From an uncultured Clostridia bacterium (GTDB lineage: Bacteria > Bacillota > Clostridia > Christensenellales > UBA1242), in contig CALWTF010000014.1 in assembly GCA_944384415.1 (NCBI GenBank), forward strand, positions 1,741 through 33,740: DNA of 32,000 nucleotides, in the 5' to 3' direction. The notes below the pieces were generated by a model. That model was not told the DNA's origin. It saw only the letters and a program-made list of their open reading frames with translations, and ran no database searches. Positions 2,258-7,119 of the stretch are shown here, piece after piece (the first letter of the stretch is position 1; every line of letters begins with the position of its first letter). Position numbers and translations under genes: made by a program.

Positions 2258-3883
2258 TTATTTAATCAAATTTTTTGTATCTTGAAAAATTGATTCAATT
2301 TTATTTTTAAATTTTACAAAACTTGTTTTATCCATTTTTTTTCTCTGCTTGTCATCACATAAACTTTCTGTTTTAGCAGTTTCTTCATTAATAACTTTTG
2401 TATTATCCAAAACCTGATTACAATCCGATTTTGTTGCGCAACTGTTAGAATTTAATGTTTCAGTTTTTAAACCATTTTCAATATCATTTTGTTGCATTTC
2501 TGAAATTTTTTCAACTGCTTCAAGATTGTTTATTTGATATCTTTCATACAATTCATTAAATTTTTCATCAAAACCATAAGTTAAATTTTTATAAATTCGG
2601 TTAATATTATCATTATTTTTAATAAATTCTTCCGGCATATTTACTGGAAAAGATTGAATAATAGCTTCTTTCGTTCTTAAAGCAAGCAAATTTTTTAAAA
2701 TTTGCCCGCATAACTCTGGATTGTTTTTATCAATTTGTGCTTTTTTTATTTCACTAAAACAATATTCTTGTAAATTATTAAAATCTGCAATTAATGATTT
2801 CGATATATTATTTATAACCATATCATTATCAAACTGTTCAGGAACTTTAACTTTTTTTAATCCTGTTAAATTTTGAATAGTTTTTATTGCAGTATCATTA
2901 AAAAATTCTTTTTCGGTTAAATTAAATTCTTTAACACCATTATAATACATTTTTGTTAACATATTGTCATTGAACTGATTAAACATATAAGCACAAACAA
3001 CAAAAGGTAAATAAGTCACATCTTTCATTGTGATTGGTGGAAATCTTATTTTTGATTTTTCAAAAGCCAAAAGTTCAGTTATTGATTCGTGTATATAAAT
3101 TCCAAAATCGTAGTTCGACTCAGTTATAATTTTATCTTCTAAACTGTCATATTTATCTTTTTGAACACAAATTCCACCCATAAATTGATAAATCGGTTTA
3201 CCTGCGTTTTGTTTAAGGTTTTCCTTTATGCAAGCATTGTTTAACGCAACTTCCATACTTGGCGAATATGAAAACTCCTGCTTTGATATAGCGTGATTTA
3301 ATTCGTGGTATATTACCGACAAAAAACTATAATTAACACTAACCATTTTCCCAACATTTGTATCTGCTAATTTATCTACATCTAAATACGACATTAATAA
3401 TGCAAAGTTTTCATCACTAAGTTTGTCTAAATGGTCGTTTAAAGTATCTTCTATTATTTCCCTTTGTTCCTTAGTAACATCATCGTTTATTTTAACGCTT
3501 AAATTTAAGTTTTTATCTAACGAATATCTATATTTACCTACTAAGTCTGGATTTATAATTTTATTAAATATATTATAATTATTTTCTAATGTATCAATAT
3601 CTCTTACATGAACCGAACTAGCATCATTAAAATCACCATTTACCAAAATTGAATGCCTAGCCATAGTTCCCGATTGATTACTTTTTAATTTATGATTTCC
3701 AACAACTTTGAAGTTTGTTTTGAACAATTTATCTAAAAAGTCTAATGACACTTCATTATCTGATGCAACAGTATCATAAGCAAATAATTTTAAATAAATT
3801 ATATAACGCTTAGGAAGTTTTGAATTTTTATATTGCTCATCAAATTTTTCATCAATAACTTTTATTTTTTCTTTAAAATCCAT
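2258..3883 (-). CDS. Uncharacterised zincin-like (HExxH) protein, paralog 1, 541 aa, between gyrB and gyrA
   Basis: Long ORF with a GGAG SD. HELNH at aa 193-197 (nt 3293-3307, CAC GAA TTA AAT CAC). Downstream HESITELLAFE at aa 265-275. Shares motif order and position with the ORFs at 5830-7119 and 26451-27821. No N-terminal signal or TM segment is evident. Confidence 0.75.
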   Translation of the reverse strand: MDFKEKIKVIDEKFDEQYKNSKLPKRYIIYLKLFAYDTVASDNEVSLDFLDKLFKTNFKVVGNHKLKSNQSGTMARHSILVNGDFNDASSVHVRDIDTLENNYNIFNKIINPDLVGKYRYSLDKNLNLSVKINDDVTKEQREIIEDTLNDHLDKLSDENFALLMSYLDVDKLADTNVGKMVSVNYSFLSVIYHELNHAISKQEFSYSPSMEVALNNACIKENLKQNAGKPIYQFMGGICVQKDKYDSLEDKIITESNYDFGIYIHESITELLAFEKSKIRFPPITMKDVTYLPFVVCAYMFNQFNDNMLTKMYYNGVKEFNLTEKEFFNDTAIKTIQNLTGLKKVKVPEQFDNDMVINNISKSLIADFNNLQEYCFSEIKKAQIDKNNPELCGQILKNLLALRTKEAIIQSFPVNMPEEFIKNNDNINRIYKNLTYGFDEKFNELYERYQINNLEAVEKISEMQQNDIENGLKTETLNSNSCATKSDCNQVLDNTKVINEETAKTESLCDDKQRKKMDKTSFVKFKNKIESIFQDTKNLIK

Positions 3884-3897
3884 TATGGCTCCAATAA

Positions 3898-5802
3898 TTA
3901 AATATCTAAATCTTCAACCAAAGTTGCATTTTTTTCAATAAATTCCCTACGCAACTCAGGACATTCACCCATAAGAACAGTAAAAATTTCATTTGCTTCA
4001 AACGCATCTTGCATTGTTACTTGCAATAAAGTTCTTTTTTCAGGGTTCATTGTTGTTTCCCAAAGTTGCTCAGCATTCATTTCACCCAAACCTTTATAGC
4101 GTTGAATTTCAATACCTTTTCGACCAACTTCATTTTGATATGCTTCTAATTCAGCATCACTATAAAAATATTTTGTTACATTGTTTTTAACTGTTTTATA
4201 CAGTGGTGGTTGAGCAATATAAACATGACCGTGCTCAATTAAAGGTCGCATAAAACGATAAAAGAAAGTTAACATTAAAATTCTAATATGACTTCCATCT
4301 ACATCAGCATCTGTCATACAAATTATTTTGTTATATCTTAGTTTGCTTTCATCAAAATCTTCTTTTATACCTGTTCCAAAAGCAGTAATCATATATTTAA
4401 TTTCTTGGTTTTCCAAAACATGTGAAAGCCTTGCTTTTTCAACATTCAAAATTTTACCTCGCAAAGGTAAAATTGCTTGATATCGTCTGTCTCGCCCTTG
4501 TTTAGCTGTTCCACCAGCACTATCACCCTCTACTAAATAAATTTCACATAAACTAGAATCTTTTGAACTACAATCCGATAACTTACCTGGAAGAGAATTT
4601 GATTCTAAAATACCTTTTCTTCTTGTAAGTTCTCGTGCCGACCTTGCAGCTTCACGCGCACGCTGTGCTGTAACACATTTTAAAACCAATTCTTTTGCTT
4701 GTGATGGGTGTTCTTCAAGATATGTTCCAAACTCTTCAGCCATAGCTTTTTCAACATAACCACGCATTTCACTGTTGCCCAATTTTGTTTTTGTTTGCCC
4801 TTCAAATTGTGGTTCAGTAAGTTTAACACTAATAATAGCGGTTATACCCTCACGAACATCTTCACCACTAAGTTTTTCAGTATCTTTTAAAATTTTATTT
4901 AAAGCACCGTAATCATTTATTAATTTTGTTAATGAATTTTTAAAACCTACTAAATGTGTTCCACCCTCTTCAGTGTTTATATTGTTTGCATAAGCGTGAA
5001 TTGTTTCACTGTAACTATCGTTATACTGAAAACAAATTTCAATTTGATAATTATCTGCCACTTTGTTTATATAAACAGGCTTTTCAAACAAACAATCTCT
5101 TCCACGATTTAAAAATTCAACAAATTCAACAATACCACCTTCAAAATGAAAAGTATCACTGTGTTCTCTACCTTCTCGCTCATCAGTAAGTGAAAGAGTT
5201 AAACCTTTGTTTAAAAAAGCAATTTCTTTAAAACGAGTTTTTAAAGTTTCATAATTAAAATCGGTTGTTTCAAAAATTTCATCATCTGGCATAAATATAA
5301 CTGTTGTACCTGTTTGATTAGTTGTGCCAACAACTGTAAGTTCATTTTGCGGAACACCTCGTTTATAATCTTGATGATATATTTTGCCATTCTGTTTAAC
5401 TTCAACTTCTAACCAACTTGAAAGGGCATTTACACAACTTAAACCAACACCGTGTAAACCACCACTTATTTTATAACCTGAACCACCAAATTTTCCACCA
5501 GCGTGCAATTTTGTTAAAACAACTTCAACCGCACTTTTATTTTCAGTTTTGTGAATACCAGTAGGAATACCTCTTCCATTATCAACAACTTTACAACTTC
5601 CATCTTTTTGTAAAAACACTTGAATATGATTACAATATCCAGCCAAAGCCTCGTCAATACTGTTATCAACAATTTCAATAATAAGATGTTGCAACCCTCG
5701 TTCATCTGTTGAACCGATATACATACCAGGTCGTTTTCTAACTGGCTCTAACCCTTCTAAAACTTGAATGTCTGACTCATCATAATGTTTATTTTGTTCC
5801 AT
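3898..5802 (-). CDS. gyrB: DNA gyrase subunit B
   Basis: 634 aa. Motifs: [71 protein letters not shown], and the Toprim [18 protein letters not shown] upstream. Confidence 0.97.
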
Positions 5803-5829
5803 AAAAATCCCCTTAAAAATTGTAAAACT

Positions 5830-7119
5830 TTATTTTATAACAGCATTATGTTCAGTGTGAAATTCATTTTCAATTTTACATTCCAAATCATTAATGGTTT
5901 TTATAAATTTTTCACTACCTTGAACACTTAATCCCATAATTAAATTAATTGTATTATCACTGTTTAAAAACATATATCTATCTTCAATAAAATCTTGTTT
6001 TTGTTTTTCCGAAAGCTTATTTTCTTGTACTAATTTAGTAAATTTACTATCACAATAATCAATAATTTCAACCATACAATCTATTAAATTATTTAAGTTG
6101 ATATCATTATCAAAAACATCATTATTGTTTTTGTCTACAATTGATAAAACATAATTTTTAAATAACTTATCCATTTCAACAGCATCTTCAATTGAACACT
6201 TTTCAGCAAATCTACCCGTAATATACTGATTTCGCCATTCACCATTATTTACCACATTAAACATACCTTCAATAAACGGTAAAGTTCCATAATCAGTTAC
6301 ATCAACAATACCTTCCTTATACAATTTATCAAAAACACCTAAATTATTTGATATTTCATTAGCCCATTTTTCAACAATACTTTCTTCTTTAAATTGGTTT
6401 ATAAATTCATTATGCAATAAAACAACATCATCAACCAAGTCAGTATCTTTTACAAATTTAACACCAAAAACACCAACTTGCTCCACACCAAATTTAACAG
6501 ATAATTTATCATCATAATTTACAAATTTTTTTAAACTTATATCACTGTTATTGTCATCAAATTTTTCAACACTAGCATAACTAACAGCGTGCAGTAATTG
6601 ATGAATAAAATTTTGTTCAACAAGTGCTTTATTATATTGACCTTTTAAATATAAAGGAATAGTTTGATTGTTTATATATTGATTAATAAATTGTTGTTGT
6701 ATCTTATTTTTTTGTTTTAGCATTTTAAAATTATCAACAATTTTAGAATCATCATAAACAAATTCAAACAACGAAGATGAAATTTTTGCTTTTCTTTTTG
6801 TTTTACAACCTAACAAAGCATTAAATTCTTCATCTTTTGTTATAAACACCTTTCTTTCTAATTCAATTTTACCATCATTAACAATTAAACTTCTGTTAGT
6901 AAAAACATCAAAATATTTTTGATTACTTTTATCAACATATTCAATTTTAGTTTTTTCCAATCTTTTTAAAATTTCATCTCGTTCCTCAACAGAACAATCA
7001 ATAACTTGACTATAAATTTCTTTTAAAAATGGATAACAATATCCAAACTTTAATCTTAAGTATGCCGAATTTTCAAACAAAAATTTTTCTCTTTTGTTAA
7101 ATTGAACAACATTTCCCAT
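5830..7119 (-). CDS. Uncharacterised zincin-like paralog 2 with degenerate HQLLH motif (429 aa), between recF and gyrB
   Basis: ORF with a GGGGTG SD, 10 nt after the recF stop. HQLLH at aa 173-177 (nt 6589-6603, CAT CAA TTA CTG CAC) lies at the same relative position as HELNH and HELIH in the paralogs. Shared blocks: NRSLIVNDG vs RHSILVNGD, and GTLPFIEGMF vs TYLPFVVCAYMF. Confidence 0.7.
   Translation of the reverse strand: MGNVVQFNKREKFLFENSAYLRLKFGYCYPFLKEIYSQVIDCSVEERDEILKRLEKTKIEYVDKSNQKYFDVFTNRSLIVNDGKIELERKVFITKDEEFNALLGCKTKRKAKISSSLFEFVYDDSKIVDNFKMLKQKNKIQQQFINQYINNQTIPLYLKGQYNKALVEQNFIHQLLHAVSYASVEKFDDNNSDISLKKFVNYDDKLSVKFGVEQVGVFGVKFVKDTDLVDDVVLLHNEFINQFKEESIVEKWANEISNNLGVFDKLYKEGIVDVTDYGTLPFIEGMFNVVNNGEWRNQYITGRFAEKCSIEDAVEMDKLFKNYVLSIVDKNNNDVFDNDINLNNLIDCMVEIIDYCDSKFTKLVQENKLSEKQKQDFIEDRYMFLNSDNTINLIMGLSVQGSEKFIKTINDLECKIENEFHTEHNAVIK

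Follow-up and report, generated by a model that had tools for sequence, protein, structure and literature searches.

A putative zincin-like protein family with predicted inactive paralogues, interleaved with recF, gyrB and gyrA in one clade of uncultured Clostridia

The DNA analysed in this study is a stretch of 32,000 nucleotides (nt) from contig CALWTF010000014.1 (assembly GCA_944384415.1) of an uncultured Clostridia bacterium (UBA1242); this whole stretch is referred to as the window, and all coordinates are window-based. The window is AT-rich, with a guanine plus cytosine (GC) content of about 27%. On its minus strand, reading leftward from the origin, lie dnaA, an open reading frame (ORF) of 221 amino acids (aa), recF, a 429-aa ORF, gyrB, a 541-aa ORF and gyrA. 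The subjects of this work are the two ORFs interleaved with the gyrase genes, here named P429 and P541, and a third ORF of the same family, P456, located elsewhere in the window. An earlier note on this DNA had drawn attention to the three ORFs as cytoplasmic zincin-like paralogues and had proposed a connection with gyrase. The genes concerned are the following:

9689-11071, minus strand: dnaA, identified as an ORF
8784-9449, minus strand: the 221-aa ORF, between dnaA and recF
7130-8215, minus strand: recF, with a TTG start, the first gene in the tightly packed run, supported by tblastn to relatives
5830-7119, minus strand: P429, the 429-aa ORF between recF and gyrB, a member of the core subfamily carrying HQLLH
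3898-5802, minus strand: gyrB, identified as an ORF and by homology
2258-3883, minus strand: P541, the 541-aa ORF between gyrB and gyrA, of the divergent HE(G/S)ITE subgroup, with its metal-site motifs intact
1-2212, minus strand: the 5' part of gyrA, which continues past the window start
26451-27821, minus strand: P456, the family's third member, separated by 9 nt from the DEAD-box helicase gene downstream of it
25009-26442, minus strand: the DEAD-box helicase gene, directly downstream of P456

The ORF coordinates confirm the order recF, 429-aa ORF, gyrB, 541-aa ORF and gyrA that had been reported for this locus, with intergenic gaps of 10, 27, 14 and 45 nt in that order. Shine-Dalgarno (SD)-like sites (GGGGTGA, AAGGGGA, TTGGAG and AAAGGAG) are located 6-10 nt 5' of each start, and a consensus scan of the minus strand from recF to gyrA gave zero terminator-like hairpins, the sole convincing hairpin of that scan being at 8781-8746, upstream of recF. 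The statements that each gene possesses its own SD and that no hairpin terminator separates them are therefore upheld. Promoter-like matches were found at chance level (53 against 55 expected) and are uninformative either way. Judging from the short gaps, the SD-like sites and the absence of terminator-like hairpins, recF, P429, gyrB, P541 and gyrA are probably co-transcribed in this genome.

Junction lengths were compared with those at 80 gyrB loci taken as a baseline. For the gyrB-to-gyrA gap, 33 loci gave a median of 11 nt, with 3 of the 33 above 500 nt, which agrees with the expectation that the two genes are normally adjacent and supports the rarity of an insertion between them. For the recF-to-gyrB gap the median was 312 nt (25 loci), and a single locus was above 1000 nt. 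The interleaving at this locus is therefore both real and unusual. In Bacillota and Actinomycetota the recF-gyrB gap normally holds a small remB/DUF721-type gene, with which the baseline median is consistent. P429 and its relatives occupy this same slot of the origin-proximal cluster; however, the proteins are unrelated, one to five genes, each 340-550 codons long, fill the slot here, and genes also sit at the gyrB-gyrA junction.

Paralogy of the three ORFs, as claimed in the earlier note, was borne out, although the relationship is weaker than had been implied. In BLASTP comparisons, P429 and P456 matched with an expectation value (E) of 9e-7 and P541 and P456 with an E of 0.028, whereas P541 and P429 gave no direct match. 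P541 nevertheless matches the protein P0025 and the neighbour of P0025 at E 5e-13 to 4e-14, and P0025 in turn is matched at E 4.5e-18 by a profile that excludes the P541 subgroup, so that P541 belongs to the family transitively. P429 was recovered by a leave-one-out hidden Markov model (HMM) at E 1.2e-62, and P456 by an HMM of the core subfamily only at E 9e-19. When 1.84 billion representative proteins were searched exhaustively by HMMER with a four-sequence profile, only 30 passed the cut-off of E <= 1e-3, and these make up the family. A word-indexed homologue search, capped at 8000 candidates, gave near-identical sequences (P0001 and P0003), P0002 and P0026.

P429 is present in 13 strain variants, all full length and with HQLLH in 13/13, and P541 in eight, also all full length and with HELNH and HESITE in 8/8. 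For two orthologue pairs (c and d) from the related loci L089 and L093, which are described below, the ratio of nonsynonymous to synonymous substitution rates (dN/dS) is about 0.1, with dS saturated. The homology, the confident structural models, this ratio and the intact strain variants indicate that P429, P541 and P456 are selectively maintained genes. Spurious ORFs or pseudogenes were considered and ruled out by ORF conservation, the confident models and the low dN/dS, while insertion of a mobile element or prophage was ruled out by the lack of any phage or plasmid homologue together with stable synteny.

The motifs that define the candidate metal site were located in the three window proteins as follows:

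P541, HELNH: aa 193-197, 3293-3307, minus strand, at the C-terminal end of predicted helix 176-199
P541, HESITE: aa 265-270, 3074-3091, minus strand, E-x-x-x-E at the start of predicted helix 259-280, candidate third metal ligand
P541, TYLPF: aa 290-294, 3002-3016, minus strand, holding the Tyr that is nearly invariant family-wide
P429, HQLLH: aa 173-177, 6589-6603, minus strand, codons CAT CAA TTA CTG CAC, in the HExxH alignment column
P429, EESIVE: aa 245-250, 6370-6387, minus strand, E-x-x-x-E at the start of predicted helix 239-260
P456, HELIH: aa 174-178, 27288-27302, minus strand, intact
P456, DEAITE: aa 246-251, 27069-27086, minus strand, intact

The counterparts of TYLPF are GTLPF at aa 278-282 in P429 and SYLPY at aa 282-286 in P456. 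Both inserted ORFs had been described as HExxH ORFs, with H-E/Q-x-x-H given as the motif; P541 carries HELNH, but P429 reads HQLLH, and an active protease is unlikely in its case. The shared motif order had been given with correct positions, with one exception: the P429 counterpart of the family acidic helix is KEESIVEKWANE (aa 244-255), and the segment HNEFINQFKEE (aa 236-246), which had been proposed for it, overlaps just its start. The further claim that the three proteins have no signal peptide or transmembrane helix proved right and extends to the whole family, as neither feature was detected in any member and the maximum 19-residue Kyte-Doolittle mean was low (at most 1.05 in the three window proteins and at most 1.53 family-wide). 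The proteins are thus predicted to be soluble and cytoplasmic, and a membrane or secreted protease was ruled out on the same grounds.

Across the 30 aligned sequences, near-invariance is confined to the two His and the Glu of HExxH, the downstream motif's Glu, the Tyr and two Gly columns. HExxH falls in a single alignment column and is found in 28/30 representatives. A trimmed core alignment of 20 sequences shows no variation at either His or at the Tyr, and at least 90% of its sequences keep the catalytic Glu and both Glu residues of E-x-x-x-E. The downstream Glu is located about 70 aa after HExxH in the E-x-x-x-E helix, and the conserved Tyr about 30 residues further on; around this Glu the core subfamily has EEG(I/V)VEDWA, the P541 subgroup HE(G/S)ITE and the P456 subgroup DE(A/G)xxE. 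As a sequence pattern, HExxH followed by a Glu-bearing helix is a gluzincin-type signature, and the original recognition of this signature is confirmed by its conservation across the family alignment.

Copies that have lost the signature are also informative. The second copy of the L089 array (b462, also P0030) reads YQVMLN and RGGIVE at the two motif positions and that of the L093 array (b383) reads YIHMLR and EGGILE, so that both motifs are degenerate in each; their joint loss suggests that HExxH and the Glu motif form one functional site. These second-position copies (L089 5482-6870 and L093 637-1788) lack HExxH and the Glu motif but have intact ORFs, which suggests long-term retention of pseudoenzymes; they are also the fastest-diverging pair of the array, with 32% identity. 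In P429 only the Glu is altered, to Gln (CAA), and its closest orthologues elsewhere retain HExxH. In zincin enzymology, a Glu-to-Gln change removes the general base and leaves metal and substrate binding. P429 is accordingly predicted to be catalytically inactive, given that the catalytic Glu is replaced in all of its strain variants.

AlphaFold2 models were built on the 30-sequence alignment. The model of P429 has a predicted local distance difference test (pLDDT) score of 81 and a predicted template modelling (pTM) score of 0.83, and that of P541 has values of 73 and 0.72, respectively. Both models share one order of elements, beginning in the N-terminal part with three helices, three strands and a disordered insert of variable length, and continuing with a long helix that ends in HExxH, a four-strand meander, the helix that starts with E-x-x-x-E and an all-helical C-terminal half. 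In these predicted structures the order of elements is compatible with a zincin core. The zincin assignment would thus rest on the conservation pattern, the predicted helices and the element order, and not on demonstrated homology.

Searches of Pfam, NCBIfam, PHROGs and PADLOC recognised no family in the three window proteins or in any of the 30 members. The PDB was queried with a single protein, with 5-sequence and 30-sequence profiles and with a profile of the trimmed catalytic core, and these sequence and profile searches gave nothing at or below E 0.01. The best sub-threshold PDB matches were to zincin active-site helices, namely astacin (E 0.34) and anthrax lethal factor (E 0.071); a match to Asp1 was discarded as spurious, as it fell on the helical tail. 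A core-motif scan of the JGI metagenomes and IMG/VR yielded no confirmed relatives, tblastn found no match in plasmid or phage collections, and no description of the family or of its placement was found in a literature search. The view that this is an undescribed family is therefore supported by the absence of any match in Pfam, NCBIfam, PHROGs, PADLOC and PDB sequences and of any significant Foldseek neighbour.

Among known systems, the closest resemblance is to the gluzincins (MEROPS clan MA(E)), in which thermolysin (M4) combines HExxH with NEAISD, neprilysin (M13) carries GENIAD about 59 residues after HExxH, and families of the lethal factor and MtfA type have an EFFAE Glu helix after a spacer of 45-60 residues. 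In common with these enzymes, the present family has HExxH on a helix (HELNH in P541 and HELIH in P456, with P429 failing this comparison), a downstream helix with a conserved Glu at its start and an acidic residue at position +4 from it (E-[GSA]-[IV]-[VT]-E here, compared with E-A-I-S-D or E-N-I-A-D), and a conserved Tyr further downstream; the long spacer between HExxH and the Glu has a precedent in M13. The models would add backing helices, three strands, the active-site helix and the Glu helix in the same order. However, the family differs from gluzincins in having no Pfam or PDB match at or below E 0.01 and no significant Foldseek match, and in three elaborations. The two helices are separated by an inserted four-strand beta meander (about 55 residues), a disordered insert of variable length precedes the active-site helix, and the C-terminal half, about 150-250 residues long, is all-helical, specific to the family and marked by GMWN..S.N.LR and FCD motifs. 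Lethal factor (M34) provides the best PDB profile match through its FIHEFGHAV helix, but this match covers the HExxH helix only, and there is no Pfam ATLF match. MtfA (M90) is cytoplasmic, as the present family is predicted to be, but no Peptidase_M90 match was obtained and profile alignment to it, detailed below, was negligible.

A comparison with the SprT/Wss1/Spartan proteases was of particular relevance, as the earlier note had suggested an analogy with these enzymes. The similarities comprise the HExxH zincin signature, the cytoplasmic location and genomic proximity to DNA enzymes, together with weak matches to SprT-like phage proteins in the BFVD structure collection (E 0.53 and 1.7, with TM-scores of at most 0.27). 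In contrast, none of the 30 members has an SprT-like or WLM Pfam match, no conserved His lies behind HExxH, the third conserved position being instead a Glu carried by a helix about 70 residues away, and the proteins are three to four times larger. Moreover, no DNA-binding domain, zinc finger or basic module was found with Pfam, and the isoelectric points (pI) range from 4.7 to 8.5, although the helical C-terminal half may provide a DNA-binding surface. The analogy was not sustained, since SprT/WLM homology is lacking, the third conserved ligand is Glu and not His, and there is no recognisable DNA-binding module.

The neighbourhood survey showed that homologues recur beside gyrB, gyrA or recF in related genomes. 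The nearest species representative, L001, whose gyrB is 80% identical, has two family genes between recF and gyrB and an empty gyrB-gyrA gap of 654 nt. The other arrangements are as follows:

L082: recF, one copy, gyrB, two unrelated small ORFs, gyrA
L097 and L086 (one genome): recF, three copies, gyrB, an unrelated 551-aa ORF, gyrA
L089: recF, five copies, gyrB, a helix-turn-helix (HTH) gene and a 151-aa ORF, gyrA
L093: four copies collinear with L089, with identities of 63% (a), 32% (b), 51% (c) and 78% (d)
L083: gyrB, three copies, gyrA
L096: gyrB, one split copy, gyrA

The flanks of the four-copy array in L093 run off the contig. Within the clade, copy number varies from one to five between recF and gyrB and from zero to three between gyrB and gyrA, and the subfamilies are slot-specific, with the core subfamily in the recF-gyrB slot and the P541 subgroup in the gyrB-gyrA slot. 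These arrays show that the family expanded in place in both gaps by tandem duplication. In outgroups with gyrB 66-72% identical, gyrB and gyrA are adjacent and no family member is present, and the family is likewise absent from all of the other 79 gyrB loci.

The orthologue of P456 in L087, P0017, shares the same bPH, TM2, X and DEAD-box helicase context, and two further copies were detected in L094, beside genes for a GHMP kinase and a glycosyltransferase.

Some features of the individual slots were also recorded. Unrelated, unannotated ORFs occupy the gyrB-gyrA gap of L086 (4748-6403, 551 aa) and L082 (5808-6545, 81 and 158 aa), and at 13628-14434 in L089 the gap contains an HTH_3 regulator and the 151-aa ORF. 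In this clade the gyrB-gyrA junction acts as a hotspot for insertions. In L083 (260-3352) the first two of the three copies share a 71-aa N-terminal stretch that is 62% identical while being otherwise highly diverged, which suggests a recent partial duplication or gene conversion. The P541-like gene of L096 (1686-3280) appears in the gene calls as a 140-aa ORF and a 387-aa ORF (P0028) and is probably one gene broken by a frameshift or an assembly error.

Divergence within the family is rapid. P429 and its orthologue P0005 are 29% identical, compared with 48% for recF and 80% for gyrB, and P456 and P0017 are 24% identical, compared with 59% for the neighbouring DEAD-box gene and 57% for the TM2 gene. 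At the strain level, P456 has accumulated six nonsynonymous and two synonymous changes, compared with zero and four, respectively, in the neighbouring DEAD-box gene. Paralogues are only 15-30% identical. Judged by these figures, the family evolves much faster than its neighbouring genes.

The interpretation that we consider reasonably probable is that of a clade-restricted zincin-like family, with dead paralogues, that expanded inside the origin-proximal recF-gyrB-gyrA cluster. Under this interpretation, P541, P429 and P456 would be expressed, selectively maintained members of a very small family of soluble cytoplasmic proteins, which would have arisen in, or been acquired by, the ancestor of one clade of uncultured Clostridia. 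Tandem duplication then multiplied the family in the recF-gyrB and gyrB-gyrA gaps, where its genes would probably be expressed by read-through on the recF-gyrB-gyrA transcript. The proteins would share a gluzincin-type metal centre composed of two His and the catalytic Glu at one helix end, a Glu about 70 residues later, and the Tyr. As suggested by the conservation of their motifs, P541 and P456, which retain the complete site, would most likely be zinc-dependent hydrolases and probably peptidases, while P429 would most likely be an inactive paralogue that retains metal and substrate binding. The HExxH and Glu metal centre is of a known kind; none of the resources or literature searched describes the family itself, the elaboration of its fold, or its location and multiplication in the recF-gyrB-gyrA cluster.

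Several results weigh against this interpretation. The only sub-threshold Pfam matches are at the level of HExxH, to PipA in 2/30 members (E 0.024), to M8 in 1/30 and to flagellinolysin in 1/30, and HExxH is also present in non-peptidase metalloenzymes. Foldseek searches gave no match at E <= 1e-3, either for the P429 and P541 models against the PDB or for one model against BFVD; the weak BFVD matches, which like the best PDB ones point towards zincins, were to SprT-like, M34 and IrrE proteins (E 0.5-1.9), and the weak zincin-like entries overall, including the structural-genomics entry 3e11, had E values of 0.5-3.7. Alignment of the core profile with Escherichia coli MtfA by hhalign covered 18 columns, corresponding to the HExxH helix only, with a probability of 2.8%. 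With regard to the operon, the family genes of L001 are spaced by gaps of 370-660 nt, so that tight operon packing is not a family-wide feature.

A different account would have the same proteins target gyrase, RecF or trapped topoisomerase-DNA complexes, either as proteases or as modulators, and be expressed from the transcript of those targets so that dose follows target, with P429 in a substrate-trapping or regulatory role. The genomic distribution is what gives this proposal its appeal, as 24 family genes were examined and at least 17 of them fall in the recF-gyrB or gyrB-gyrA gaps, in seven genomes that are diverse (GC 27-47%, RecF identity to the window 42-48%) and that carry distinct subfamilies in each slot. 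The P456 subfamily, moreover, lies directly upstream of a nucleic-acid ATPase, the DEAD-box helicase, in two genomes, the window genes are tightly packed with no terminator-like hairpin between them, and the dead paralogues have been retained for a long time, as regulatory pseudoenzymes would be. However, the linked copies all come from one clade and amount to a single evolutionary observation, and the linkage can be explained by a single ancestral insertion followed by vertical inheritance in a rearrangement-resistant operon. The family is missing from the outgroups and from the 79 other gyrB loci although gyrase poisoning is universal, its proteins show neither homology to DNA-protein-crosslink proteases nor a recognisable DNA-binding domain, and their pI values follow no pattern. 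L001, L082, L086 and L089 have nothing, or only unrelated ORFs, between gyrB and gyrA, the two L094 copies have genes for a GHMP kinase and a glycosyltransferase as neighbours, and the P456 subgroup as a whole sits elsewhere in the genome, away from gyrase. The unrelated cargo in the slots, the unlinked P456 subfamily and the spacing in L001 weaken a functional link, and we regard this account as rather improbable. The physical link of the family to the gyrase genes is recurrent, and the functional link is unsupported. The functional coupling to gyrase or DNA transactions that the earlier note had inferred is thus not borne out, given that the linked copies belong to one clade with gyrB about 80% identical and that the slots also hold unrelated ORFs, and we judge such coupling unlikely. 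Its most specific version, in which clade-specific zincins and dead paralogues with a fold elaboration unrepresented in the PDB would act directly on the replication and topology machinery at a dose that tracks their targets, for example to clear or regulate trapped complexes of gyrase or RecF, with E-to-Q and degenerate copies as substrate-trapping regulators, appears about equally unlikely.

The rapid divergence could instead reflect an accessory or conflict family, for example anti-phage or anti-toxin proteases with decoys, that occupies permissive slots of a highly and constitutively expressed operon and to which gyrase is irrelevant. Arrays of one to five copies whose paralogues are so dissimilar would fit such a role, as would orthologues that diverge far faster than their neighbours (P429/P0005 and P456/P0017), the excess of nonsynonymous changes among P456 strain variants relative to the DEAD-box gene, the keeping of degenerate copies, and the presence in these slots of other lineage-specific cargo (an HTH_3 gene with a 151-aa ORF, a 551-aa ORF and a vWA protein). 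Nevertheless, PADLOC gave no match, the phage, plasmid and IMG/VR collections contain no homologue, and no hallmarks of mobile elements were seen nearby, while the conserved array order of L089 and L093 and the low long-range dN/dS indicate stable vertical inheritance under purifying selection; this explanation is therefore also considered unlikely. Finally, the proteins might not be hydrolases at all, with H, H and E binding a structural metal or persisting as a relic in a scaffold or adaptor. The models of P429 and P541 without a significant zincin fold match would be compatible with this, and P429, P0030 and L093 b383 have lost the motif partly or wholly and yet remain intact and conserved. 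However, the catalytic Glu, which is not a metal ligand, is kept in 28/30 members and the Tyr is invariant in the 20-sequence core, a pattern demanded by catalysis beyond metal binding alone, which makes a non-hydrolytic family very improbable.

The locus is of interest under any of these explanations. The recF-gyrB and gyrB-gyrA junctions are among the most conserved in bacteria, and here they are split by up to five and up to three paralogues, respectively. If a cytoplasmic zinc protease acting on gyrase or RecF were confirmed, it would represent a bacterial counterpart of the DNA-protein-crosslink proteases that evolved independently of SprT, and would be relevant to quinolone tolerance. 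Should the family have nothing to do with gyrase, an essential and rearrangement-resistant operon would have served as a nursery for a tandemly expanding family, in which pseudoenzyme copies are still retained in the long term. Either way, a new candidate family is added to the zincin repertoire.

Other features of the window were noted around the origin. Cumulative GC skew is lowest near 11-12 kb, and position 11414 has a DnaA-box-like TTTTCCACA; on this basis the replication origin is probably located in the dnaA-dnaN spacer. The dnaN gene (11588-12691, plus strand) does not follow dnaA but diverges from it. The 221-aa ORF has no match in Pfam, NCBIfam or PHROGs and is followed by a terminator-like hairpin at 8746-8781 with a stem of 16 base pairs. 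In L001, a 460-aa vWA-domain protein takes the place of this ORF between dnaA and recF, and the different ORFs in the two genomes indicate that the dnaA-recF slot also carries lineage-specific cargo.

Farther along the window, a collagen-like ORF with G-P-T, G-A-T and G-E-T repeats of the BclA exosporium type is encoded at 31440-32000 (plus strand, third frame) and runs past the window end; its local GC is 44%, compared with about 27% elsewhere, and its antisense reads 'PVGPVG'. At 24079-24907 and 22532-24061 (plus strand), two overlapping small ORFs, one of 129 aa and one of 155 aa, come after a gene for a DUF1538 membrane protein.

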